Assembly (NCBI GenBank): GCA_964354495.1
Contig: CAYHAA010000001.1
Coordinates: forward strand, 60,001-92,000
DNA: 32,000 bases
From: an uncultured archaeon
Lineage (GTDB): Archaea; Asgardarchaeota; Thorarchaeia; Thorarchaeales; Thorarchaeaceae
Direction: 5' to 3'
Shown here: positions 1,015 to 21,095 of the stretch, in pieces
Position numbering within the stretch: the first letter of the stretch is position 1
How the letters are laid out: every line of letters starts with the position of its first letter
Made by a program: the position numbers and the translations under genes
Notes under the pieces: model-generated
Told to the model about the DNA's origin: nothing
The model's database searches: none
The model's input: only the letters and a program-made list of their open reading frames with translations

Positions 1015-2049
1015 ATGAAACTGAATTACCGCGAGTTTTTCATGCAAAAAATGCTCATCATGTTCAAACCCGAAGACATTGAGATGTCAGCAAAGGACTT
1101 CATATCGACATACGCTTCTTACATGGAAGATGTCGGAATAGTCGGCAAGGGCCCTGATGGATATGCAATATACCCCAGCAAGACAGCACCGGTCAGAGAA
1201 CAGCATTTTCCATTCTTTGAGGAATGGGTGCGCCTTACGGATGCTTTGGACATCAATGCGGTTGTTGGGCTTGATATGTATACTGATGGATGGTTTGCCA
1301 GAGATCCGAAGTATCAGACCATGAATGATAGGGGGATAAAGATGGAACATCAGATCTGCCCCAATCGCCCGGAGTTCTGGCAGTACGGTGCTGAGATAGT
1401 GAAGGAGATCGGGTCATATCCAATCGATGAGATTCTTCTCTTTGGAGCGGGTTATATCAGAGATCAATTCTGCTTCTGCGACCGTTGTCGAAAGGAGTTT
1501 GCACCCATGGTCGATCAAGAGCCCAGTCGGCTCACATATCAGTATATCTCGGAGAATCCGGAACATCATGAGAAATGGCACAAGTTTCGGAGTGAAAAGG
1601 TGCATCAGGGTCTTGCCTATCTGAAGGATGCCGCTGTGGAGGCAGATGATGCGACTGGGAGAGAGAAACCTCTCAGGCTCTCAGTTGAAGTGCTCCTTGA
1701 TCCTGAAACAGGTCTCTCCGATGGTGCAAAGAACGAGTATGGCTATGATCACACTAGGATTGGGGAGATTACAAAGAATGTCTTGATTAATCTCTTCCCA
1801 TGGTCTCCTGTTATCCCCACCAAGGGGACCTCTGAGTACAGCGAGCTCGTAGAAGCGCTCTATTTTGTGAATGAGTTCACGAGGCGAGGAGGGAGAGCAT
1901 CTCTCTTCCGTTGGGGCGTAACGACCTTGGAACAGCTCCAAGAGCTCAAGGCATTGGGTAAGGATGTTGGAATTGACAGAATTGTAACGACGTTCCACTA
2001 CCCCTCTGACTATTCTCGTAGACGAGAGAGCGCGATTGGCAACTTCTAG
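1015..2049 (+). CDS. Putative glycoside-hydrolase-like TIM-barrel protein (GHL10/DUF187-like) with a CFCxxC motif
   Basis: Segment ICPNRPEFWQYGAEIVKEIGSYPIDEILLF...FCFCDRCRKEF follows the CP..PE.....DGI.LD...cyC..Cr..F pattern of GH-like barrels. True start may be ATG 1042 or 1051. Confidence 0.5.
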   Translation: MKLNYREFFMQKMLIMFKPEDIEMSAKDFISTYASYMEDVGIVGKGPDGYAIYPSKTAPVREQHFPFFEEWVRLTDALDINAVVGLDMYTDGWFARDPKYQTMNDRGIKMEHQICPNRPEFWQYGAEIVKEIGSYPIDEILLFGAGYIRDQFCFCDRCRKEFAPMVDQEPSRLTYQYISENPEHHEKWHKFRSEKVHQGLAYLKDAAVEADDATGREKPLRLSVEVLLDPETGLSDGAKNEYGYDHTRIGEITKNVLINLFPWSPVIPTKGTSEYSELVEALYFVNEFTRRGGRASLFRWGVTTLEQLQELKALGKDVGIDRIVTTFHYPSDYSRRRESAIGNF

Positions 2050-5274: not shown

Positions 5275-5635
5275 TTTGTTTTATCTCCTCTTATTCGAGA
5301 TTCACAAACAAGCCAACTGGATATCACCTTCAGGCAAGAAATCGTGATGCGAAACACCTTCACTAAGTAGTGTGAATTGGCGTTTTCTGTGCGTCAGAAT
5401 TTACATGCCATTGGGCAACACCCTGTTTGCTGCCGTTCAGAATCAACATATGCTTGAAGGGCGGTCCCATATAGGACTATCGATGGACCGTATTCCCCCA
5501 GAATCCTGATAATAATTGACTTTTTTTGGCACCGAGCATCTGCAATCGCTTCTCAGTCGAGAGTAGGAGGCGAGCTTATTATCTTCTAAGAGCGTCATTC
5601 CATAGAATAGATAAAGTAAGGAAGACTGTGCATCC

Positions 5636-6988
5636 TTGGTAGATTGCCTCTCCAATATAGAGTCAGCTGAAATTGCGCAAAAGTCCCAAAGACATCTGGA
5701 GTTCATCGGAGACATTGACCCAGATACCGTGATTCCTGATGGGTCAAGCATCCTTATTGTCAGTAAGGACCAATCCTATCTTACACATGGGATTCACAAA
5801 TTCCCTGCAAAGTTCTTTCCGGAACTCCCTCGATATTTGATACGCAGACTCTCCAATGAAGGCGATACAGTGCTGGATCCAATGTGTGGCAGTGGGACCG
5901 TCGTTCTTGAGGCAGTATTGAATAACCGAAGAGGAGTGGGAATTGATGTGGACTCAATTGCACGGCTTCTCACAAAGGTGAAGACCACTCCCATTCTTCC
6001 GAGTCTTCTCAGGAATGTGGCATCATGCCTCTCAACCAATATCCAATGCATGGACAAGAATGGTGAGTTCGATGACATTCTCCCCGAGTTCAATTACCGT
6101 GACAGCTGGTTTCGACCATCTGTGCTCAGGGAGCTAGCCATACTAAAGAAGTGCATCAACGAAGTCCCCAGACTGTGTGCTGGCATGAAGCAGGACTCGC
6201 TACATGATCTTCAGGATTTCTTGAGAGTTGTCCTGTCATCCATTATTCGTGACGTTTCGAATGCAGATCCACATTGCACCAGAACGGTGCTCAGAAAGAA
6301 AGTCATCAAGAACATAGCTCCGGGCGACACTATATCTAGGTTCCTCACAACGCTCTCAAAGCAGGTGGCTGCAATGGATGAGCTCTGGCGAGTCTACTCG
6401 TCCTCTGCAAATTGGGATATTCAGCTCCCCAAAGGTACAGCAATACATACGGGCTTAGATGCAGAAAGCATTGATCTGGCAGTGACATCGCCACCATACA
6501 TCAATGCTGTCGACTATCCGCGTACTCATCAATTAGAAATGTATTGGTTGGACATGCTTGACGAGGATGGCCCTCTCGCCAACGTGAAACGACGCTACAT
6601 TGGAACAGAAGCAGTTTACAAGACGGACTATCAGCGTCTTCGAGTCACCAATCTGAAAACACTTGATCCAATACTTGCACGGATATTCGGGACAGATCCA
6701 AGGCGATCCTATATCGTCCACAAGTTCTTTGAGGATATGGAGGTACAACTAGAAGAGACCATGAGAGTCTTGAAACCCGGAGGTCACTACTGCATTGCGA
6801 TTGGTAACAATCTCATTCGTGGCGTGCTAGTGAAGTCACACGAAATTCTCACAGAGATTGCAACCGAAAGGACAGGATTCCGGCTTGACAGAGTCTTCTT
6901 CTCCAAGTTAATCCGCCATTTCATCCGAATCCCTCGAAGAGAGAGAATGCTTGGTGAATGGATCATAATTCTTGAGAAGCCGCGATAG
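5636..6988 (+). CDS. Amino-DNA methyltransferase, alpha-order, probably N4-cytosine; no restriction endonuclease adjacent
   Basis: THGIHKFPAKFFP, SAM-binding motif I VLDPMCGSGT near the N-terminus, and catalytic motif IV AVTSPPY after a central variable region. The TTG start is uncertain. Confidence 0.88.
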   Translation: MVDCLSNIESAEIAQKSQRHLEFIGDIDPDTVIPDGSSILIVSKDQSYLTHGIHKFPAKFFPELPRYLIRRLSNEGDTVLDPMCGSGTVVLEAVLNNRRGVGIDVDSIARLLTKVKTTPILPSLLRNVASCLSTNIQCMDKNGEFDDILPEFNYRDSWFRPSVLRELAILKKCINEVPRLCAGMKQDSLHDLQDFLRVVLSSIIRDVSNADPHCTRTVLRKKVIKNIAPGDTISRFLTTLSKQVAAMDELWRVYSSSANWDIQLPKGTAIHTGLDAESIDLAVTSPPYINAVDYPRTHQLEMYWLDMLDEDGPLANVKRRYIGTEAVYKTDYQRLRVTNLKTLDPILARIFGTDPRRSYIVHKFFEDMEVQLEETMRVLKPGGHYCIAIGNNLIRGVLVKSHEILTEIATERTGFRLDRVFFSKLIRHFIRIPRRERMLGEWIIILEKPR

Positions 6989-7107
6989 TTCGTCAGGCTA
7001 TGCCAAGACTTATCAGCAGACAGGTGTTCAGAGTCACAAATCACAAGGAGGTACTGAAGTCATGGCAATAATCATTGGGTGGGATAACGTTTGCCAGACG
7101 CTCGTTC

Positions 7108-7320
7108 ATGTCTCTGCCTCCTTCTGCGAAATTTCTCTACGTGCTTCTTAAGAGCAGGCACCGGATGACCCGGCAGGACCTCATAAGCACGACATATCTG
7201 CCTCCCAGAACAGTCAACTATGGTCTCAGTCGACTGAAAGCCATTGGACTGATTCAAGAGGTGGAGCACACAGAGGATGCGCGGGAGCGGGTTTACGAGC
7301 TGGTGCAGACGCCCATGTAG
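7108..7320 (+). CDS. Small archaeal winged-HTH DNA-binding protein (MarR-like)
   Basis: LPPSAKFLY..L....MTRQDL...TYLPPRTVNYGLSRLKAIGLI......DARERVYEL matches a widespread ~70-aa archaeal wHTH pattern. TTG 7075 is an alternative start. Confidence 0.85.
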   Translation: MSLPPSAKFLYVLLKSRHRMTRQDLISTTYLPPRTVNYGLSRLKAIGLIQEVEHTEDARERVYELVQTPM

Positions 7321-7449
7321 TACAGACGAGAACCAGAAGGTGGTCTTGATATACGTCCAGACCATCTTCGACCTCTCGGATTGACTCGCTCCAAAAGCCT
7401 CTTAATCTGCAACGCTCCGGATGAAACCAATCAGACTGAGGCGTAACCT

Positions 7450-8808
7450 ATGGATTTCTACAAGAGAGCGGGCGTTGTCCCAATTGGCGGTGAACAGCGC
7501 ACCCACTTCAGTAATCAGATAACGCTGGAACTTGCAGGCACTAAAGTCATACTCATGGGATGGACCCACATCCTCCGAGACAAGGGGAAGATCAAGTTTC
7601 TGGTTCTTCGAGACGAGCATGGTACGGTGCAAGTTGCCATTCTCCAGAAGAAGGTCCCCGAGGAGGTCTTTGAGGTTGCCGGACAATTGAAACCCGAAAC
7701 CGTTGTTGCAGTTCATGGGGATGTCGTTGCCTCGCCGCAGGCCCCCAACGGAGTTGAGATAGTTCCGACAAGGGTACGCATCCTGAATACTGCTGACCGC
7801 CTTCCAATTGATATTGTTGAGGGGAAGGTAGACATTGACCTAGACACGCGCCTCAATCATCGTGTTCTAGATCTTCGTAAACCAACTATCAATGCGATTT
7901 TCAGAATCCAGCATAGCCTGGTTCGCTATGCCCGGGAGTATCTTGAGAAGAATGACTTTGTAGAGATTCATACCCCTAAGCTCGTCGCAGAAGCCACAGA
8001 GGGCGGAGCAAACCTATTCGAAGTCAAGTATTTCGAGAAAAAGGCATACCTTGCACAGAGCCCGCAGTTCTACAAACAGCTCATGCTTCTTGCTGGATTT
8101 GGTCGAGTCTTCGAAGTAGCACCTGTCTTCAGGGCTGAGAAGCATAATACTAGACGTCACGTCAATGAGTATACATCATTTGACTTTGAAATGGCTTGGA
8201 TTAGCGGAGTAGAAGATGTCATGAAGATGGAAGAGCGAATGCTCAACTACTCTTTCGAGAAGACAAGGAAAGCGGCTGCGCACGAGTTCGCACTACTTGG
8301 TATTGACCTCAAGATACCGCGAGTGCCCTTCAAGAGAGTGAAGTACGTCGATGCAATTGATCTTCTCAATAGTGCAGGAAAAGAACTTGCCATCAATGAC
8401 GACCTTGACCCCGAGTGTGAACAGCTGCTTGGACAGATTTTTCCAGAGAAATATGGCACGGATATGGTCTTCATCACTCACTACCCTCTGGAACTGAGAC
8501 CTGCCTATACGATGCCAAGTCTAACTGACGAAGGAATGACAGAGAGTTTTGACCTCACGTATAAGGGAATGGAGATCACGACAGGAGGTCAACGCATTCA
8601 CCTGTATGACCTTCTCATTGAGCGGTTCAAGGCAAAGGGATTCAATCCTCCGGACTTCAGTTTCTATCTGGATCCTTTCAACTACGGCGCTCCACCACAT
8701 GGTGGACTAGGCCTTGGAGTCGAGCGACTTACCATGCAGGTTCTGGGTATCGATAATATCCGTGAGGCAACACTTCTACCGCGTGACAGAGACAGACTCA
8801 CACCCTAG
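7450..8808 (+). CDS. aspS: Aspartyl-tRNA synthetase, archaeal non-discriminating (Asp/Asn) type
   Basis: OB-fold GWTHILRDKGKIKF, motif 2 FRAEKHNTRRHVNEY, motif 3 PPHGGLGLGVERL, and LAQSPQFYKQ. His in GWTH and Pro in QAPNG are the non-discriminating signatures (Trp and Lys in discriminating enzymes). Confidence 0.96.
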   Translation: MDFYKRAGVVPIGGEQRTHFSNQITLELAGTKVILMGWTHILRDKGKIKFLVLRDEHGTVQVAILQKKVPEEVFEVAGQLKPETVVAVHGDVVASPQAPNGVEIVPTRVRILNTADRLPIDIVEGKVDIDLDTRLNHRVLDLRKPTINAIFRIQHSLVRYAREYLEKNDFVEIHTPKLVAEATEGGANLFEVKYFEKKAYLAQSPQFYKQLMLLAGFGRVFEVAPVFRAEKHNTRRHVNEYTSFDFEMAWISGVEDVMKMEERMLNYSFEKTRKAAAHEFALLGIDLKIPRVPFKRVKYVDAIDLLNSAGKELAINDDLDPECEQLLGQIFPEKYGTDMVFITHYPLELRPAYTMPSLTDEGMTESFDLTYKGMEITTGGQRIHLYDLLIERFKAKGFNPPDFSFYLDPFNYGAPPHGGLGLGVERLTMQVLGIDNIREATLLPRDRDRLTP

Positions 8809-8904
8809 TAGTGGCGAGATAATACTCTCACTTAAAGCACGAGCAATTGAATGTGTCTTGTCAGCTTTGTGCGGACTTTCAGAATAGAGAAGGAACTATC
8901 ACCG

Positions 8905-9663
8905 ATGCAGGAGCGATTCGAAACAGAACTCTATGCCTCCATTGCCACGCTTGACCAGCTGAAGAAGCTGTATGACCTGGGCGCTGTTGATATTGGATCA
9001 TTCCAGAGAGAATCACAGGCACTCCTCCAGGAGGTACGGAGCAATATTGATAATCTGAAGCGAAGCGGATTGGATGTCGGAGGCTTCTTTGCAGGTGAAC
9101 GAATATCTGAGGTCTTTCCAGATGCTGCTGACCTTCTCAGGCTCCGCGAGGATGCATCCGCAAGATCCTATCAGGGAATGAATGCCGACCAGTACTATGA
9201 TTACATCGGCTTGGCAATACTTGACGTTGCTACTCAACACGCTTCGAAGGGACTAATGGGACTTGCAGAGCTCATTGTTGAGGTCGTGCGCCGTCTTCCT
9301 GAGATGAAATCTGTTACATACAATGACGTAATCGAGGCAGTCAACCGGGTGTCAGAGAATGGTCTAATTCCTGGTATTCGGACTCTTCGTGGAGGAGTGA
9401 AGGTCGTAGAGCTAAGGCCGCTTGAACTCGGCCGTGAGCAAGCTGATGTGGTCAACTTGGCAGCATCGAAAGGTCATGTTTCAGTTGAAGACGTGATGAT
9501 GCAGCTCAAATGGTCAGAAGACCATGCACGTCAAGTGCTTACAAGTCTCGTAGAGACCGGAATGGCAGTCGCAGATATCCGCTTCTCAACAGGTGGGAGG
9601 TATTATTTCCCTGGTCTTAGAGCACGAGATAAACCTGAAACGCCAAACCAAGGAGCTCACTGA
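8905..9663 (+). CDS. vps22: ESCRT-II Vps22/36 (EAP30) subunit with an N-terminal Vps28N-like ESCRT-I headpiece domain
   Basis: From 9187, DQYYDYIGLAILDV...GLMGLAEL...NDVIEAV...PLELGREQADVVNLAASKGHVSVEDVMMQLKWSEDHARQVLTSLVETGMA...YYFPGL tracks SNF8/Vps22 tandem winged helices. N-terminal ELYASIATLDQLKKLY..GAV..F....LL resembles Vps28. ATG 8905 is preferred over 8851. Confidence 0.9.
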   Translation: MQERFETELYASIATLDQLKKLYDLGAVDIGSFQRESQALLQEVRSNIDNLKRSGLDVGGFFAGERISEVFPDAADLLRLREDASARSYQGMNADQYYDYIGLAILDVATQHASKGLMGLAELIVEVVRRLPEMKSVTYNDVIEAVNRVSENGLIPGIRTLRGGVKVVELRPLELGREQADVVNLAASKGHVSVEDVMMQLKWSEDHARQVLTSLVETGMAVADIRFSTGGRYYFPGLRARDKPETPNQGAH

Positions 9664-10394
9664 GTCGATACCAAGACTGCGCCCTTCTTCCTATCAATCC
9701 ACTCAGCAAACCCTTTCTCTACCATCAGCGCCATAACAATATGAAGATCGTTTTCGGGAAGCTTTGCAAAGCCCTCCTTTGACTCCTGAATCACTATGGA
9801 TTTGACATCTAGTCTTAGCTTTCCAGTCTTCAGGGACCACTCATATATCAGGTCGGCCCAGTCCTCAAGAGGTCTCCAAAAGATTCTGAGTTGCCGTTTT
9901 CGCCTGTCACTCCACTCCGCCACCTCCTTATCGATGAGGGCCTCTGAGATCATCTTGAACGAGTCGACCTTGTTTCTCAGATCCTTGAAAGGAGGTTTAC
10001 TAATGAACGCAGCAAGGGATAGTACATGGATCTGTTTGAGTTCTGCCCATTGAAGCAGATAATCTGACCACTCCTCTGCCCACAGAATCCTATCCTCTTC
10101 TCTTGGAGGAACACCATACATCCATTCACTCTCCTCGGGGCTTCCCCAAGGGGGCATCAGAACGACTGGTGCGCTCTCAAGTCTCTCTACTTCCGTTTCG
10201 TCTGCGACAGCATCATTCTCGGAAACTACTTCAGTCGTTTCGGACTTCTCAACGATGACCTCGGGTGTGTGGATATCATCCTTTATTACAGGAGAGGTCT
10301 CTGCCTCCTGAACTGACCGAACCACCTCAGTGTCTTCTGGTTCTTCCTGGGCTTCTTCTCTTCGTTTCTCTTTCCTCTTCTCTCTCATGCCCAA
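9657..10394 (-). CDS. vps25: ESCRT-II Vps25 subunit with a long charged N-terminal extension
   Basis: AEWSDRRKRQLRIFWRPLEDWADLIYEWSLKTG matches Vps25 LEW.D.....IMWRRPEEWGKLIYQW. The C-terminal winged helix ends KGFAEWID. Confidence 0.9.
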   Translation of the reverse strand: MGMREKRKEKRREEAQEEPEDTEVVRSVQEAETSPVIKDDIHTPEVIVEKSETTEVVSENDAVADETEVERLESAPVVLMPPWGSPEESEWMYGVPPREEDRILWAEEWSDYLLQWAELKQIHVLSLAAFISKPPFKDLRNKVDSFKMISEALIDKEVAEWSDRRKRQLRIFWRPLEDWADLIYEWSLKTGKLRLDVKSIVIQESKEGFAKLPENDLHIVMALMVEKGFAEWIDRKKGAVLVSTQ

Positions 10395-10397
10395 TCT

Positions 10398-11627
10398 CTA
10401 CGAACCCTCCGCCCAGTCAATGTATCTCCTGACATCCTCTGGGGGAGTTGCAGGTCTGATGTTCTCGATGGCACTCAGGAAGTCTTCCCTTGAAACGGGT
10501 CGGATGTCCAAGATCTCTCTCTCGTCGTCCATTCTTCCAGTGCGCTGAAGGTCTCTGATTGGTTCCATCGCTGCTTCTCGGCAGACGATGCTTATGTCTC
10601 TACCACTGTACCCTTCAGTCAGGTCTGCCATCTCTTCATAATCAATAGTTGGAGAGACCTCGATGTCTTCCATATGGGTCTCAAAGATTGCTGTTCTTGC
10701 CTCTCTTCCGGGAAGTGGAACATGTATCTTCTTCTCGAATCTCGACCGAAGAGCAAAGTCTAGCTCCCACGGTAGATTCGTCGCTCCAATCAGAGTGATT
10801 CTGTCTTTTGGATCACTTCCAAGACCCTGAAGCTCTGTGAGTAGTTGGGTCTTGAGTCGCCGTTCTCCTCCTACATCATCTCCAGAGCGCGACACTCCGA
10901 TAGAGTCGAGTTCATCAATAAAGATGATTGCAGGCTGATTCTTCCTGGCCAGTTCAAAGAGGGTCATGACCAAGCGTTCCGACTCTCCCAACCACTTGCT
11001 GACGATGTTCGCAGCAGATACATTGAAGAAAGTCGCATTCACCTCTGATGCCACTGCTTTAGCAATGAGTGTCTTTCCACAGCCGGCTGGTCCATAGAAT
11101 AGGATTCCTCTCCAAGGCTGTCTTGCTTTGCCTTTGAATAGCTCCGGATGTTTCATTGGTGTGACTATTGCATCACTAATCGCCTGTTTTGCATCCTCGA
11201 GTCCTGCGACCTCAGACAGCTTGATCTTGGGCCGTTCAGAGATGATTGTGTCCGAGATCATCTCGCGCAGTCGTTTTCCATCCTCGTCCAGTTCTTGCTC
11301 AACTTTGGATGCCTGCTTGATTGGCGCAGGCTTGGCAGGCCCAAAATCTGCCTTTGGCGGTTCAGCAAGACCATCAACAGGTCCTGCCGATTTCTTCTTA
11401 ATGCCTGAGAGGAACCTGACTCTATCTACGCACTCTTGGGCGCGATTGAAGTAGTGTTTTCTTATGGTTGGAAGAGCAGCTGAGTTTGAGAGCTTTATCA
11501 GTATCTTGCTCGCCTTGAGATATTGTTGGCATGCCTCGTTCTTCATCCCTCTCTGATCGAGTTCTATAGCTCTGTCGAGCAGAGTCTTGAGACCCAGGTC
11601 CAATCTATCACTATCCGATCCGGCCAT
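10398..11627 (-). CDS. vps4: Vps4 AAA+ ATPase with an N-terminal MIT domain
   Basis: MIT helices (LDRAIELDQRG....A..QYLKAS), Walker A GPAGCGKT, pore loop SKWLGESER, Walker B IIFIDELD, and ATNLPWELD. Lies among ESCRT genes. Confidence 0.95.
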   Translation of the reverse strand: MAGSDSDRLDLGLKTLLDRAIELDQRGMKNEACQQYLKASKILIKLSNSAALPTIRKHYFNRAQECVDRVRFLSGIKKKSAGPVDGLAEPPKADFGPAKPAPIKQASKVEQELDEDGKRLREMISDTIISERPKIKLSEVAGLEDAKQAISDAIVTPMKHPELFKGKARQPWRGILFYGPAGCGKTLIAKAVASEVNATFFNVSAANIVSKWLGESERLVMTLFELARKNQPAIIFIDELDSIGVSRSGDDVGGERRLKTQLLTELQGLGSDPKDRITLIGATNLPWELDFALRSRFEKKIHVPLPGREARTAIFETHMEDIEVSPTIDYEEMADLTEGYSGRDISIVCREAAMEPIRDLQRTGRMDDEREILDIRPVSREDFLSAIENIRPATPPEDVRRYIDWAEGS

Positions 11628-11780
11628 GCGCGTTCATGTGTACAATGTGTGTAGGATGTTAAGACTTTCTGTGGCGTTTACACAACGATACACGAGAGCG
11701 CGTTCATGGGAGTAGGTAGCTGCGAAGGTTTAAACGAATAGTCCATCATCAATGATTCAAATTCTTGATTCAGGAGTAAG
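11628..11780. promoter_or_regulatory. Divergent promoter region shared by vps4 and ESCRT-III
   Basis: Plus strand has BRE/TATA-like CGAAGG-TTTAAAC at about 11723-11735 and SD AGGAG before GTG 11781. Minus strand has GAAAG-TCTTAAC at about 11669-11658. An 11-bp direct repeat GCGCGTTCATG occurs at 11628 and 11698. Confidence 0.55.
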
Positions 11781-12398
11781 GTGAAATCTTTGGCTTCAAT
11801 AAGAAAGGCATTTGCCTGGGGTAGGAAGAAACCAGATGTTGGCGAGATTTCCAGTCGTCTAAGAATCCTAAGTAAACAGCTTGCCCGACAGAGAAACAAA
11901 CTCGAGAAAGAGGAACAGGACACCCGCGCCAGAGCTGTACGTGCGAGGAAGGGCGGGCAGACGGATGCATATCGAACTTATGCTACCGAGATGATCCGCT
12001 TCAGACGCTACGCGCTCTCCGTCGACAAGTCACGACTTCAGATTCTAAAGATCCTTGCACACCTGAATCGTGCTCAGACATCGGCAAAGACCTCTCTAGC
12101 TCTTCAAGAAGTAGCGAAGATTCTTGGCATGCTGGGTGAATCTACAGACTCGACAAAAGTCGTCGCGAACGTTGACGAGATTGCTCGGCGCCTTGAAGAA
12201 TTCGAGATTGAAACGAACATATCCGATGAGGCTCTTGACTCCACTATGGAGATTTCGTCTGAAGATCTCACATCTGCAATGCAGGAGATTGACATAGAAG
12301 CGGGTCTTGCAGACGCTGCTGCGGCTAAGAAACCGCTTGGCGAGGTTGAGTCCCTAGAGGATGACATCAAGTCCTTAGAACGTGAGTTGGGGATGTAG
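11781..12398 (+). CDS. ESCRT-III subunit, Vps2/24/46 (CHMP1-3-like) class
   Basis: N-terminal amphipathic helix (SIRKAFAWGRKK), basic helical hairpin RLRILSKQLARQRNKLEKEE...ARKGG...YRTYATEMIR, acidic C-terminal half with MQEIDIEAGL (compare CHMP1 LQEMADEAGL), and a terminal amphipathic MIM1-like helix. Confidence 0.92.
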   Translation: MKSLASIRKAFAWGRKKPDVGEISSRLRILSKQLARQRNKLEKEEQDTRARAVRARKGGQTDAYRTYATEMIRFRRYALSVDKSRLQILKILAHLNRAQTSAKTSLALQEVAKILGMLGESTDSTKVVANVDEIARRLEEFEIETNISDEALDSTMEISSEDLTSAMQEIDIEAGLADAAAAKKPLGEVESLEDDIKSLERELGM

Positions 12399-12402
12399 AG
12401 TA

Positions 12403-14013
12403 TTACCAGAATTGCTCTCTGGACTCTCTCGAGAGTCGCTGAATCTCTCTTCTGTTGAGATAGGAATCTCTCATGAGATCTTTGTACCTTCGAATGAAGT
12501 CTTCTGTCACTAAGCGACCATCTCTCAACAAGTGTACGGTTTCTCGCATAGCTCCATAGATGGACTCCGAGCTTCTTTGAAGGGTATCAATAGATTCACT
12601 TGGTCTGTATTGCATGTTACCATTTTGGGGCTGGTTGCTCCGGCCGATTGTCCTCTCCAAATCCTTTCTGAAGTATTCCGGGGATGCATAACCTGTACCA
12701 TATGGAATCTCCCTTGGTTGAACCTGGGACGTGGACCAAGGTTGGGTTTGGTACCCAAGGTCAGGCCTGATTGCTGTGGCATCATCTTGTCTCTTGTTTG
12801 GTGATAGTAGTGAATAGACCATCCCCTCGATCTTTAGCCTCACATCGCTGATACTGACTTCTTCTTGCTCGATTTTGCGTACTCTCTGCATGTCAGTCTG
12901 GACATACCTATCGAATTTACGAGCAATCTCCACATAGTCTGGTAAGACCTTCTTTGTCTGGTCCGAACAAGATATTCTCACATCGCCCTGCTTGAGCTTC
13001 AGGACTAGCCTCTTTCGAAACCGCCCGTCCTCCTCTATCGACTTCAGATAAAGAAGGGGAAAATCGAAGATTGTCTCCATCTTTCTGCGGACTCTTCCAG
13101 TTTCAGCTAAGAATAGGAGTCTCTTATTGGTCAGGTACAGTGTTCCCAGGGCCTTGTCGTTCTTGAGGAAGTCACTTCCTGCTACTTTCACGTCTGGTAG
13201 GGCGCACACCGGGAGCTCTCCGACAGAGAGCTGGCAATGTTCGTAGAAGTTTGTGAAGTGATTCCTATAGTAGTCGAGACCATCCAATTGCCTCTTGACA
13301 TCCTTCAGGGTGATTCTGAGGGATTCGATTGCCTCGTCAACGTTTTGTTTGTAGTAGATCCCGAGTTCTGTGATTCTGTTGGTTATTCCCTCAATGAATG
13401 GAAATTGGGATACTCTCCAAAGAGCGTATTCGGTGAAGTTCTTGGTCTCCGCAGCCATCCTTCTGGCCACTATCTCTGCCTGACTTCCGATTCGGTTCTT
13501 GATTGCTGGCAGTTCTTCTTGGATTGCCTCTATCTTTTCTTCGAGCCACTTGTAATGGAGGAAATTCGCCATCCTGAGCGACACCAATAGACGCTTAGTG
13601 ACACTGAGTTTGTTGTTGAATTCGCGAAGCTTGGTATGTCCATACTGAATTGTCATGACAGCATGACGCATTTCAAGGGCCAGTGTCCTTCTCTTGTCCT
13701 CAAGGACAACGATCCGCACGGAGTGACATCTAGCGCAGATGTCGATAGTACGCTTACCCCTGGTGAGGTTCTCAGATTTGCACTCAGGGCAGCTCTCGAA
13801 TTTCTCTCCAGGGATTGGTTCTCCAAGAGAGTGGTGACAGTCTCCGCAGACATCGTACTCAGTGGTTCTGCTATCTAAACATTCTGAGCAAAGAGCTGCT
13901 CCACAGTCTTCGCACATATGGGTTGCCCTGTTCTTCTGGCAGGATCGACACAGTTCAGATGTTGCCTCTTCTGTCAACTGAGTACCTCCGGTGGTCACAT
14001 CTACTAGAGGCAT
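12403..14013 (-). CDS. ESCRT-I-like protein: multi-Zn finger, coiled coil, GRAM/GLUE-like PH domain, Pro/aromatic linker, steadiness box (Vps23 core)
   Basis: Six CxxC pairs in residues 22-96, heptad-rich helices, GTLYLTNKRLLFLA (GRAM/GLUE signature), and C-terminal LLRDGRLVTEDFIRRYKDLMRDSYLNR, which aligns with TSG101 ALRRGVIDLDVFLKHVRLLSRKQFQLR as recalled. Confidence 0.8.
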   Translation of the reverse strand: MPLVDVTTGGTQLTEEATSELCRSCQKNRATHMCEDCGAALCSECLDSRTTEYDVCGDCHHSLGEPIPGEKFESCPECKSENLTRGKRTIDICARCHSVRIVVLEDKRRTLALEMRHAVMTIQYGHTKLREFNNKLSVTKRLLVSLRMANFLHYKWLEEKIEAIQEELPAIKNRIGSQAEIVARRMAAETKNFTEYALWRVSQFPFIEGITNRITELGIYYKQNVDEAIESLRITLKDVKRQLDGLDYYRNHFTNFYEHCQLSVGELPVCALPDVKVAGSDFLKNDKALGTLYLTNKRLLFLAETGRVRRKMETIFDFPLLYLKSIEEDGRFRKRLVLKLKQGDVRISCSDQTKKVLPDYVEIARKFDRYVQTDMQRVRKIEQEEVSISDVRLKIEGMVYSLLSPNKRQDDATAIRPDLGYQTQPWSTSQVQPREIPYGTGYASPEYFRKDLERTIGRSNQPQNGNMQYRPSESIDTLQRSSESIYGAMRETVHLLRDGRLVTEDFIRRYKDLMRDSYLNRREIQRLSRESREQFW

Positions 14014-14142: not shown

Positions 14143-15528
14143 ATGGAAGATCTTGCGCGGATTGCCATTGAAACCGCCCTAAAAGCCGGTGCGCGATTTG
14201 CCGATGTGAGATTCGAGAACAGCGCAACAACAATCATAGAACTCAATGACGGTGTCTCCAAACAGTCATTATCATCCCGCCTCAAGGGCGCAGGGATGAG
14301 AGCATTCGTCGATGGTGCGTGGGCATTTGCCCAGACAACTGACCTGACCAGAGATGGTATGAGGTCTATTGGCAAGTCGGTTGCAAAGATGGCTCTCGCA
14401 ACCAGAGAGAAGACCACTGAACGATTTGAGATAGATGGTCCATCATTTCAAGACCGGCTTCATTACAACGCGAAGAAACCCTTCAGCAGTGTTTCCTTAG
14501 ATGAGAAGATGGCATTTGCCAAGATGATCGACGACCAGACACGGGACTATGACAAACGCATCTCTTCGACACGAACTGTCTATACAGACCTCTGGACTGA
14601 GCTCTATGTTGCCAATTCTCTCAGTACAAGTATCTATACCGAAAACGCGATTCCGCGTATCATCTCTGCTCCGACAGCCAAAGATGGCATAAACCGACAA
14701 AGTACATTCAAGTCGTTGAGTGTGCGAGGCGGATACGAAGTCATGAGTGCCAGCGAGGCGCAGAATATCGGGACCGCCGCTGGGAAGCTCGTGATTGACC
14801 TGCTATCTTCTGCGTCTGTCAAGGGCGGAGTCTATGACGTTGTGATGGATCCCATTCTGAATGGCGTGATGGTCCATGAAGCCTTTGGCCATGCTGTTGA
14901 GGCAGACAATTGGCCAGCACATGCGACTGTACTCGAAGACAGGATTGGAACCCAAGTCGGTCCAGAGAATCTGAGCATCACGGATGATCCCACTCTTGAA
15001 GGAATGCGAGGATCCTATGAATATGATTGGGAAGGGACAAGAGCAACAAGAAGACATCTTGTCACGAATGGCACTCTGACTGAGCTACTTCATAGCCTCG
15101 AGACCGCAACAAGACTCGACTTGAAGCCAAATGGTGCTGCAAGGAGCCAGTCGTTCATGCATGAGCCACTACCGAGGATGAGCAACACCTACATGGAAAC
15201 TGGAGACTGGCAGGTCGATGAACTCATCCAAGACACAAAGAACGGCATTATTCTCTGTAGTCCCAACTATGGGTACACACAGTCTGCAAAAGGGCAATTC
15301 ACGTTTCAAGCGAGTTACGGCTATGTGATTGAGAATGGTGAGAAAGGCCAGATGGTCAGAGACGTGTCCCTTGCAGGTAACATCTTGGAAGTGCTTGCCA
15401 AAGTCGATGCGATTTGCAAAGACTTCCTGCTTGATGCAGGAACGTGCAGCAAGGGAGGTCAGGCGGTACCGACAATGGCTGGCGGGCCTCACGCAAGAAT
15501 CAGGAAAGTGCCCGTAGGAGGCATGTAG
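14143..15528 (+). CDS. tldD: TldD metalloprotease subunit
   Basis: HEAFGH zinc motif, DDPT....GSYEYDWEG, PLPRMSNTY, and TCSKGGQAVP. SD AAGGAG upstream. Confidence 0.93.
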   Translation: MEDLARIAIETALKAGARFADVRFENSATTIIELNDGVSKQSLSSRLKGAGMRAFVDGAWAFAQTTDLTRDGMRSIGKSVAKMALATREKTTERFEIDGPSFQDRLHYNAKKPFSSVSLDEKMAFAKMIDDQTRDYDKRISSTRTVYTDLWTELYVANSLSTSIYTENAIPRIISAPTAKDGINRQSTFKSLSVRGGYEVMSASEAQNIGTAAGKLVIDLLSSASVKGGVYDVVMDPILNGVMVHEAFGHAVEADNWPAHATVLEDRIGTQVGPENLSITDDPTLEGMRGSYEYDWEGTRATRRHLVTNGTLTELLHSLETATRLDLKPNGAARSQSFMHEPLPRMSNTYMETGDWQVDELIQDTKNGIILCSPNYGYTQSAKGQFTFQASYGYVIENGEKGQMVRDVSLAGNILEVLAKVDAICKDFLLDAGTCSKGGQAVPTMAGGPHARIRKVPVGGM

Positions 15529-16878
15529 ATGCTCAGCTCTCTGCTTACGATTGGTGAAAAGGCAATCAGGCTTGCTGAAAGAATGGGAGCCAACCAAGCT
15601 GAAGCATATCTGGCTCAGAGCAGATCTTTCGAAATTGCTGCTGAGAACAACGCAATCAAAAGCGCAAGCGAAACGAGAGATGCTGGCATAGGGATTCGGA
15701 CAATTGTCGGCAAGAAGGTAGGTTTTGCCTATGTCACAACGCTCAATGATTCAGACATTGAAGAGGCAGTTACCAACTCAATGAGCCTCGCAAGGGCATC
15801 TATCGCTGATCCTGATTTTGTTACTCTTCCGAATTCGGAGTCATCCTACCATTCGGCGAGAGGCATATTCGATAGGGAACTCGACGAACTCACTTCAGAG
15901 GGGACTGCAGATCTCCTAATTCGAGCAATTCATGCATGCAAGGGGTCGCTCGATAAATGGAACCATGCGATTGAGGCAGCAGTGCAGAGTTCCTCAAGCG
16001 TGAATGCAATCGTAAACTCTCTTGGCATACTCAAGAGTGAGCGGAAAACATCCATCTCTATCTATACATACCCCATCATCAAGGATGGTAAGGATCAGAC
16101 TGCAAGTTATGAATTTCAGGTCTCTCGAAGGTTGAATGAGATTGACCCTGAATGGGTTGGTACGAATGCTGCAGAACTTGTTAGAGGATTCTTACGACCC
16201 AAGACAATCGATGGTGGAGAGATGCCTGTTTTGTTTGCTCCGCTCGGAGCGAGTGCCATCCTTGGGCGTGGATTCGCTGATGCAGTGAATGCTGATGAGG
16301 TCCAAATGGGCAGATCTTACATTGCAGATGCATTAGGCGAGTGCATCGCATCTGAAAAGCTAGAGATAGTTGATGATGGATTGCTACCAAGTGGGATTGG
16401 CACACGATCGTTCGATGCAGAAGGATTCCCATCGCAGCGGACGCCAGTCATCAAAGATGGTGTCCTCAAGAGCCTCCTTCACAACTCCTACACAGCCAAC
16501 AAAGAGAATGTAGATAACACTGGCAATGCCAGCAGACCTTCCTACTCAGGACTGCCAGGCATCTCTACGACCAACTTCGTCGTGTCCCCAGGGAAGGGTG
16601 ACCTCAACGAACTCATTACAGAGCTTGATGAGGGCGTCGTCTGCAGGAACACTGGCGATAGTCCTAACCTGACTACTGGCGACCTCAGTGCTATGATTAG
16701 TGAGGGCTACTATGTCAAGAATGGTGAGATTCAGCACTCACTCAAGAACACTCTAATCGGAATCAACATGCGTGATCTCTTGAAGAGGATAAGCCATGTT
16801 GGAAATGACAGTCGAACGACATTTTCGATGGTCACACCTTCTATCGTTATCGAAAGTGCAAGCATCACGTCAGGATGA
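15529..16878 (+). CDS. pmbA: PmbA/TldE partner subunit
   Basis: Directly abuts tldD. GIGIRTIVGKKVGFAY, RSFDAEGFPSQRT and LHNSYTA are present; the HExxxH motif is absent. Confidence 0.92.
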   Translation: MLSSLLTIGEKAIRLAERMGANQAEAYLAQSRSFEIAAENNAIKSASETRDAGIGIRTIVGKKVGFAYVTTLNDSDIEEAVTNSMSLARASIADPDFVTLPNSESSYHSARGIFDRELDELTSEGTADLLIRAIHACKGSLDKWNHAIEAAVQSSSSVNAIVNSLGILKSERKTSISIYTYPIIKDGKDQTASYEFQVSRRLNEIDPEWVGTNAAELVRGFLRPKTIDGGEMPVLFAPLGASAILGRGFADAVNADEVQMGRSYIADALGECIASEKLEIVDDGLLPSGIGTRSFDAEGFPSQRTPVIKDGVLKSLLHNSYTANKENVDNTGNASRPSYSGLPGISTTNFVVSPGKGDLNELITELDEGVVCRNTGDSPNLTTGDLSAMISEGYYVKNGEIQHSLKNTLIGINMRDLLKRISHVGNDSRTTFSMVTPSIVIESASITSG

Positions 16879-20140: not shown

Positions 20141-20258
20141 ATGAAGGGGCAGGACGCAAGTCTTGCCTTCTCTTCTAGGTACTTCTTCTGCTGTATGCCT
20201 CTCGTCACATATAACCTTATCATATTCCATTTCAACAATACTTCCAAGAGATGATGCT

Positions 20259-21095
20259 ATGTCCAGCAAGAAGTCCATTCTAGGAGTCTGGGTGATTGAG
20301 CGAGGCAGTGGCAGGAATATTGTTGCCAGGGCCTATTCCGATGCCGTCAAACTAGATATGGATTTGATAGCTCCCTTTCTCTCTGCAACCCACACCTTCA
20401 TCGATAAGGCATCCAACGAGACCCTCAAGACAATTGACACGGAGACCAACCGGTATGTCTGGGAGGCGAACGACCATCTTTTGTTTGTCATGGTCGTGAG
20501 TAAAGCTGCTCGACTTGGACACATGCGCTTCATGCTGGAGTATGCCCTGAAGGAGTTCATGACAAACGTTGTGCCACCCGGTAGTGATGTCGCTACCTTG
20601 CTAAAGAACTGGCCTGGGACTCGCAATACCTTCAAGGACTTCGGCGATTTCATCGATGAGCTTGTCACTCAATATGAAGAAACGGACGAAAGCCTGGTTG
20701 CCGGCAAATCAATGGACTGCCTTGAGGTCTACAGTCATCTCTTCAGAGGCATCATGCAAGTAAAGACTACGAAAGCCAAGAAAAGCCAGATAGTTGCCAA
20801 GATGACCGAACACACTGAACACCTTCTCAGTCGATTTCCCTTCCTCAGCTCTACGCCTATTGATACTGCAGGTATCGAGGTCCTTCAGATTGATGTCTAT
20901 GATGTGTCCTATCAGCATCTGAGGGATGCCTTGGAAGAGCTCCTGCGATTGCTAGGAAAAGTGACGCAGGAAGCAGTCACACCCAAGGAGTATCGAAACA
21001 TGGTCTTTGATCATGTCATGCCATATGTCAAGGGGGACATCCAGAGACTGGAAACCTACGCTATCCTTGATGATGTCGTTCGCTACCTATTCTGA
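20259..21095 (+). CDS. Longin-domain protein with a C-terminal helical domain
   Basis: ILGVWVIERGSGRNIVARAY...DLIAPFLSATHTF...LKTIDTE..RYVW....LLFVMVV....L......F...W.G....F..F...IDEL fits the beta-beta-alpha-beta-beta-beta-alpha-alpha longin layout. ATG 20259 is preferred. Confidence 0.7.
   Translation: MSSKKSILGVWVIERGSGRNIVARAYSDAVKLDMDLIAPFLSATHTFIDKASNETLKTIDTETNRYVWEANDHLLFVMVVSKAARLGHMRFMLEYALKEFMTNVVPPGSDVATLLKNWPGTRNTFKDFGDFIDELVTQYEETDESLVAGKSMDCLEVYSHLFRGIMQVKTTKAKKSQIVAKMTEHTEHLLSRFPFLSSTPIDTAGIEVLQIDVYDVSYQHLRDALEELLRLLGKVTQEAVTPKEYRNMVFDHVMPYVKGDIQRLETYAILDDVVRYLF

Follow-up and report, generated by a model that had tools for sequence, protein, structure and literature searches.

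A probably ubiquitin-independent ESCRT cluster of Thorarchaeota with a predicted contact between a steadiness-box adaptor and a Vps28N-Vps22 fusion protein

[quoted passage not shown] This cluster probably encodes a ubiquitin-independent ESCRT module that is wired through two hairpins, one of the Vps28 N-terminal type (Vps28N) fused to Vps22 and one forming the C-terminal steadiness box (SB) of an adaptor protein of 536 amino acids (aa). In eukaryotes, the hairpins of Vps23, Vps28N and Vps37 form the headpiece of ESCRT-I, the C-terminal domain of Vps28 binds the GLUE domain of Vps36, Vps25 recruits ESCRT-III, and Vps4 disassembles ESCRT-III with the help of its MIT domain. The genome analysed comprises 3.30 Mb in 51 contigs and is 97.7% complete, and the source names of close homologues identify the organism as a Thorarchaeote. 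A map of open reading frames (ORFs) and Pfam searches revealed five adjacent ESCRT genes at 8905-14013, with the coordinates and orientations that had been given in an earlier analysis of the letters alone (the sequence-only reading):

8905-9663, + strand: Vps28N-Vps22 fusion gene, 252 aa (longest ORF from 8851; Pfam EAP30, E 9.8e-13)
8905-9165, + strand: Vps28 N-terminal-type helical hairpin domain, aa 1-87 of the Vps28N-Vps22 fusion; predicted docking site of the steadiness box
9657-10394, - strand: Vps25 of ESCRT-II (Pfam ESCRT-II, E 2.7e-14; tblastn synteny)
10398-11627, - strand: Vps4 AAA ATPase (MIT, AAA and Vps4_C), co-directional with vps25
11628-11780, no strand: intergenic region separating the divergent vps4 and ESCRT-III genes, with presumed promoters (from the gene coordinates alone)
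11781-12398, + strand: ESCRT-III of the Vps2/24/46 class, 'ESCRT-IIIA' (Pfam Snf7, E 6.3e-10)
12403-14013, - strand: Znr_CC_PH_SB protein, 536 aa, candidate ESCRT-I-like adaptor (AlphaFold2 model, orthology to ThorAB25_08990)
13705-13956, - strand: zinc module, aa 20-103 of the 536-aa protein, with 12 conserved Cys, the first part B-box-like
13255-13704, - strand: three long helices, coiled-coil- or stalk-like, aa 104-253 of the same protein (AlphaFold2)
12919-13212, - strand: PH-like domain of the GLUE/GRAM subclass, aa 268-365 (Foldseek)
12409-12591, - strand: C-terminal steadiness-box hairpin, aa 475-535 (profile against the PDB, AlphaFold2)

Single-sequence scans with Pfam and NCBIfam missed the Vps28N, SB and PH domains of these proteins, and family profiles and fold searches were needed to find them. 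The sequence-only reading had described the product of the first gene as a fusion of Vps28N and Vps22. The start at 8905, which is Met19 of the longest ORF, had been chosen correctly, since most homologues are 252 aa long. The protein belongs to the Vps22/EAP30 family, with an EAP30 score of 48.8 bits versus a cut-off of 26.8. Its AlphaFold2 (AF2) model, with a predicted local distance difference test score (pLDDT) of 75, consists of hairpin helices 2-24 and 30-53, then a linker modelled with low confidence, then two winged helices, and its best Foldseek matches in the PDB were the human and yeast Vps22 chains 2zme_A, 3cuq_A and 1u5t_A. Pfam VPS28 did not match the Vps22 protein of this genome. 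When a profile of residues 1-90 built from 16 orthologues was compared with the PDB, the four best matches were yeast Vps28 N-domains (E 0.07-0.16). Across 301 Asgard genomes, the N-terminal profile detected one ORF of ~250-280 aa in 69 of the 76 genomes of the own family, and one ORF of ~205-235 or ~470-490 aa in most other Asgard families (E 1e-9 to 1e-19); all six matches sampled outside Thorarchaeota were full-length VPS28 according to Pfam. Furthermore, an orthologue from the sister family (273 aa) scored above the Pfam cut-offs for both EAP30 and VPS28. The fusion is thus real by the profile survey and by this double match, and the N-terminus of Vps22 is a true Vps28 N-domain.

In the fusion protein, EAP30 directly follows the hairpin, and the four-helix C-terminal domain of Vps28 was not found. 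Because it lacks this domain, the protein is not a Vps28 but carries the Vps28 N-domain only. A Vps28 C-domain profile derived from Asgard sequences found nothing in the whole genome (best E 0.17, at C6:137860-138474), and an orphan protein considered as a candidate for a Vps28-CTD-like domain was supported neither by Pfam VPS28 nor by this profile (best E 0.17). One EAP30 protein in the genome scored above the Pfam cut-off; weak EAP30 matches at C4:177155, C6:85179 and C1:403272 were all below it.

The second key protein is encoded at the other end of the cluster. With its single sequence, Pfam returned only weak zinc-ribbon, GLUE and bPH matches. The AF2 model (pLDDT 85.4) has five parts: the zinc module, three long helices, a PH-like sandwich, a disordered linker and the C-terminal hairpin. 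The cysteines of the zinc module (C22, C25, C34, C37, C42, C45, C56, C59, C75, C78, C93 and C96) do not vary among the Thorarchaeal homologues, reach at least 90% conservation across the family at large, and suffice for three Cys4 sites; the relative P0266 matches zf-B_box above the cut-off. Helices 104-148, 156-189 and 201-253 were modelled with pLDDT >90. At the domain level, Foldseek matched the PH-like domain to the GLUE domain of EAP45/Vps36 (2hth_B and 2dx5_A; TM scores by target 0.59 and 0.66) and also to the yeast Vps36 PH domain 2cay, the PH-GRAM domain of MTMR2 (rmsd 3.2-3.8 Å) and Lam6, and relatives of the protein match Pfam GRAM, bPH_3 and Vps36 GLUE. The disordered linker (aa 409-471) is followed by hairpin helices 475-497 and 503-535. 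A profile of the C-terminus matched yeast Vps23 in the PDB (2p22_A, E 0.003; 2f66_A, 0.01; 2caz_A, 0.03) and weakly TSG101 (6vme_B, 0.68), which identifies the hairpin as a Vps23/TSG101-type steadiness box, although Pfam Vps23_core did not match the single sequence, nor this gene in a genome-wide search. Profiles and fold searches thus bear out the Vps28N, steadiness box, GRAM/GLUE-like PH domain and zinc sites that had previously been called by eye.

The N-terminus of the 536-aa protein is the zinc module and not a UEV domain, and it possesses no winged helices by Pfam and AF2, i.e., it is not a Vps36-type single chain with a GLUE PH domain and EAP30. The order of its parts, three zinc ribbons followed by a coiled coil, a PH domain and an SB at the C-terminus, corresponds to Znr_CC_PH_SB; the assignment to asCOG cog.011556 was made via orthology to ThorAB25_08990 (locus L042). 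The family is small, with 88 representatives in an exhaustive search, and most of its distant members retain an SB-like C-terminal hairpin. One relative, P0272 (L093:1641-3446, 601 aa, from a metagenome contig), has a zinc finger resembling a B-box, a GLUE-like PH domain and EAP30 winged helices on a single polypeptide, and its gene adjoins a Snf7 gene. Its domain composition, as read from the sequence, is a Vps36-like architecture in an archaeon, and it is the only relative with both PH and winged helices. Its zinc-PH module is fused directly to the EAP30 winged helices, and this natural fusion ties the two modules together in function.

The sequence-only reading had proposed that the steadiness box pairs with Vps28N. 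We predicted one complex, that of the Vps28N hairpin of Vps22 with the SB tail of the 536-aa protein, in three runs and with three controls. The ipSAE score was 0.81 (median of the three runs), versus 0.01 for the best of the three controls; at least 95% of the contacts were common to the runs, and the pLDDT of the partner was 70. This value is above the pass mark. Of the solved complexes, 58 of 80 reach the mark, as do 2 of 110 mismatched pairs; these frequencies apply only approximately here, as our own alignments were used. The proposed pairing is therefore supported in silico, by computation only. The predicted interface involves aa 3-40 of Vps22 and aa 493-522 of the 536-aa protein. Conservation in the two proteins is highest in these stretches, and the interface residues are nearly invariant in both hairpins; invariant are aa 11-19 of Vps22 and R497, G499, F506 and Y510 of the 536-aa protein. 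Among 54 Thorarchaeal species, the mean entropy of the interface was lower than that of the rest of the hairpin for both partners: 0.60 versus 1.02 (p 0.027) and 0.86 versus 1.65 (p 0.004). Profiles of the two hairpins revealed no paralogue of either in the genome. A common origin of the two hairpins was not shown (hhalign profile-profile probability of 11% only).

Several points speak against the proposed wiring. All evidence is computational, and the score of the complex expresses how confident the model itself is. Since the structure of the ESCRT-I core has already been solved, the passing score may partly reflect the model's memory of this fold, or likeness to it instead of real affinity, and the conservation of the interface could merely mark the hydrophobic face of each hairpin. 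Eukaryotic headpieces consist of three hairpins, and the prediction here pairs two. The ThiF/ThiS genes described below may leave room for a modifier other than ubiquitin, and the cellular role may lie in division, vesicle budding or repair. Finally, the outcome of the two-hybrid test of Thorarchaeal SB against Thorarchaeal Vps22 is given by Hatano et al. 2022 (PMC9192718) in a figure only, outside the text that we could consult, and would count against the wiring if negative.

The best of the alternatives, which we nevertheless regard as unlikely, is that the Vps28N-like hairpin mainly drives the homodimerization of Vps22 and in this way replaces Vps36, with the 536-aa protein joining via ESCRT-III, via Vps25 or by self-association of its own hairpin. 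The single EAP30 protein of the genome fits this idea, as do reports that Thorarchaeal Vps22 self-interacts and that ESCRT-I/II parts of Loki- and Thorarchaeota contact ESCRT-III, bypassing Vps25 (Hatano 2022, PMC9192718, from its text). However, Lokiarchaeal and Heimdallarchaeal Vps22 homodimerize without Vps28N according to the same text, and the predicted hairpin pair is a heterotypic one, whose score of 0.81 stands against 0.01 for the best of three controls. Moreover, the two roles are not mutually exclusive.

The locus had been noted to lack ubiquitin, E1/E2/RING and UEV genes, and ubiquitin, E2 and UEV were not detectable in the whole genome either (within the 97.7% completeness stated above). 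A search of all contigs with Pfam found no ubiquitin (best E 0.23), no match to UQ_con/E2, no UEV above the cut-off (best E 0.56), no VPS28 and no Vps23 core (best E 0.54). All three targets of the genome-wide search suggested earlier (ubiquitin, UEV and Vps28-CTD) were thus not found, and the ubiquitin, E2 and UEV genes of a eukaryote-type ubiquitin-ESCRT pathway are missing from this survey. Among the 301 Asgard genomes, ubiquitin scored above the cut-off in none of the 76 genomes of the own family, not in the single genome of the sister family, and in 196 of 223 sampled genomes of the other families outside its order. Since neither the genome nor the sampled genomes of its family possess a eukaryote-type ubiquitin system, we infer that recruitment cannot depend on ubiquitin. 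The sequence-only reading had named two observations that would speak against it, the lack of a predicted contact between SB and Vps28N, and a full Vps28 and UEV-Vps23 together with ubiquitin elsewhere in the genome; neither was made.

The genome does encode one ThiF-type E1-like protein (E 3.9e-66) and five small beta-grasp proteins of the ThiS/MoaD type above the cut-off. None of these genes is near the ESCRT locus:

C1:280039-280737; C7:94644-94907; C21:22762-23019; C32:2547-2774; C1:590257-590481; C26:19650-19880: ThiF-type and five ThiS/MoaD-type genes

The ThiS/MoaD-type proteins could be sulfur carriers or SAMP-like modifiers. In the latter case, a ThiS/MoaD/SAMP-type protein activated by the single ThiF-type enzyme would mark cargo, and the 536-aa protein would read the mark through its zinc or PH module; mammalian Vps36 GLUE, to which the PH domain is closest in fold, does bind ubiquitin (entry titles of 2hth and 2dx5). 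We consider this improbable: ThiF and ThiS exceed the cut-off in 11 of 14 control prokaryotes, in which such genes commonly encode sulfur carriers, and no link to E2, UEV or JAB was seen. Least probable, by a little, is that the SB of the 536-aa protein assembles with unrecognized hairpin proteins encoded elsewhere, which would make the locus alone incomplete: eukaryotic ESCRT-I does use three hairpins and many multidomain Asgard proteins bear an SB (Makarova 2024, PMC10936438), but the genome holds no paralogue of either hairpin by profiles, the one candidate checked, a 198-aa protein with an SB-like tail (L013:5329-5925), showed no similarity to the SB profile in hhalign, and an extra hairpin could come from the two Vps28N copies of a Vps22 dimer.

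The remaining proteins of the cluster are Vps25, Vps4 and an ESCRT-III protein. Vps25 is a member of the ESCRT-II family of Pfam (54.0 bits, cut-off 27) with an acidic, low-complexity N-terminal extension of ~85 aa; it likely starts at the ATG at 10388, as its orthologue ThorAB25_09020 begins at the equivalent Met. Vps4 has the expected composition of MIT, one AAA cassette and the Vps4 C-terminal helix: AAA (E 4e-39, 134.5 bits), AAA_lid_3 and Vps4_C (21.6 bits, cut-off 21.3) were matched, together with MIT at E 1.4e-4 and 22.3 bits, which is under the 30-bit cut-off. It also matched NCBIfam CdvC with an E of 1.8e-78, below the equivalog cut-off. The ESCRT-III protein of the cluster (Snf7, 39.4 bits, cut-off 27.3) belongs to the Vps2/24/46 class, with CHMP1B (2e-8), CHMP2A (1e-6) and CHMP3 as the best PDB matches, so that it is nearer to CHMP1/2/3 than to CHMP4/6. 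A gene for ESCRT-III of the Vps20/32/60 type lies on the same contig ~290 kb from the cluster (C1:361313-361798, locus L010:1411-2121; Snf7, E 1.9e-18) and is the orthologue of ThorAB25_07240, 'ESCRT3B'. This type (ESCRT-IIIB) contacts Vps25 in Asgard two-hybrid assays, as stated in the text of Hatano 2022 (PMC9192718).

In the probable wiring by SB adaptor and Vps28N-Vps22, the SB hairpin of the adaptor would pack on the Vps28N hairpin of Vps22 as Vps23 does on Vps28 in the eukaryotic ESCRT-I headpiece. Since Vps28N is within the Vps22 chain, the eukaryotic step of binding between the Vps28 C-terminal domain and Vps36 would be replaced by a peptide bond. The assembled pair would unite a PH domain, zinc sites and two winged helices and would thus be an architectural equivalent of Vps36, and its PH and zinc module may place the complex on membranes or on non-ubiquitylated cargo. 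Vps25 would then nucleate ESCRT-III via the distantly encoded Vps20/32/60-type subunit, the Vps2/24/46-type subunit of the cluster would co-polymerize, and Vps4 would remodel the polymer. Whether this amounts, in Thorarchaeia, to a two-chain, Vps36-like hybrid of ESCRT-I and ESCRT-II that reads membranes or non-ubiquitin cargo, and whose fusion arose as ubiquitin, UEV and the Vps28 C-domain were lost throughout the clade, giving a naturally minimized upstream ESCRT module, is a question on which we are evenly divided.

Compared with the eukaryotic ESCRT-I headpiece of Vps23, Vps28 and Vps37 (2f66, 2caz and 2p22), the prediction likewise places Vps23-type and Vps28-type hairpins side by side. 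Unlike eukaryotic ESCRT-I, the Thorarchaeal set has no UEV, Vps37, Mvb12 or Vps28 C-terminal domain, and the Vps28N hairpin sits on Vps22 of ESCRT-II. Similarly, the predicted pair would carry the same modules as eukaryotic Vps36/EAP45, namely GLUE, zinc fingers and two winged helices, whereas here these modules are distributed over two polypeptides, the zinc sites precede the PH domain instead of being inserted in it, and there is no ubiquitin.

The gene order survey that had been suggested by the sequence-only reading showed strong conservation. The gene for the 536-aa protein is carried by 71 loci of species-representative genomes, most of them labelled Thorarchaeota, and among the loci with at least 3.7 kb of downstream sequence (n=54), the order adaptor, ESCRT-III, Vps4, Vps25, Vps28N-Vps22 is kept in 53. 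The sole exception is the chromosome of Thorarchaeota isolate bin8 (L060, CP070658.1, 9573-17569), in which an ORF of 1087 aa follows the adaptor and ESCRT-III genes in place of vps4-vps25-vps22.

Much of this has been described before, so that the possible novelty of the wiring raised by the sequence-only reading could not be upheld: the cluster, its two unusual architectures and the absence of ubiquitin had been published earlier (Hatano 2022; Makarova 2024). The two-hybrid set of Hatano et al. 2022 (Nat Commun, PMC9192718) includes, according to its text, ThorAB25_08990 ('SB'), 09000 ('ESCRT3A'), 09010 (Vps4), 09020 (Vps25) and 09030 (Vps22). The cluster ThorAB25_08990-09030 of Thorarchaeota AB_25, another species of the same family, consists of the same five genes in the same order, and we recovered its locus L042 complete, with 68-85% identity. 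That text also states that Thorarchaeota are seemingly without ubiquitin and that a Lokiarchaeal SB protein binds Vps22 in two-hybrid assays; it labels the Thorarchaeal proteins just 'SB' and 'Vps22', and the portions of it available to us do not address whether the N-terminus of Vps22 is of the Vps28N kind. Makarova et al. 2024 (mBio, PMC10936438) defined an SB-fused Vps22 (cog.002769) and Znr_CC_PH_SB (cog.011556), whose domain architectures are identical to those of the window proteins, and proposed the latter, with its membrane-binding PH domain, as a likely part of ESCRT-I. They did not specify a pairing or an interface; the Vps28-N type of the SB of Vps22 is shown here. A 2023 preprint reported that Loki- and Thorarchaeia are without UEV-Vps23. 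The literature text that we found does not state the SB-Vps28N pairing in Thorarchaeota or a coupling of the fusion with the losses, the Thorarchaeal two-hybrid matrix being a figure outside that text. New here are the Vps28-N type of the SB of Vps22, an interface prediction that passes and has conserved contacts, and the clade-wide counts.

The surroundings of the cluster are mostly housekeeping genes. It is flanked by an Asp/Asn-tRNA synthetase gene (7450-8808) on one side and by two TldD/PmbA genes (14143-16878) on the other, with Arg-tRNA synthetase and TFB among the further neighbours; no member of the ubiquitin system is present among them. Two genes upstream of the cluster, an ORF of 450 aa (5636-6988, + strand) gave a match (E 1.1e-17) to the N6/N4 DNA methylase profile that covers the C-terminal portion of this profile. 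Two further ORFs of the window, 1015-2049 (+ strand, 344 aa) and 20163-21095 (+ strand, 310 aa), match no Pfam family at E <= 0.001. Elsewhere on the contig, a second trafficking-like locus (L013, C1:392000-407000) contains genes at 5329-5925 (-), 6014-6859 (-), 6875-7726 (-), 7723-8829 (-) and 9371-11719 (+). It encodes an Arf-family GTPase with an N-terminal extension of 120 aa (Arf, E 2.6e-19) as well as zinc-finger and winged-helix proteins. The end of a further product, of 782 aa, is weakly similar to EAP30 (E 0.034).

To summarize, this analysis is chiefly of confirmatory value: it connects the window with genes known from publications, provides a testable interface and does not describe a new kind of system. 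Thorarchaeota are the one well-sampled Asgard lineage that possesses ESCRT-I/II-like parts but no ubiquitin. They illustrate how ESCRT proteins can be recruited when the ubiquitin signal, which defines the pathway of eukaryotes, is absent. Five proteins with a predicted hairpin interface that can be mutated make a convenient minimal system to reconstitute in vitro, and this would directly test what is recognized by the GLUE/GRAM-like PH domain and by the zinc module.

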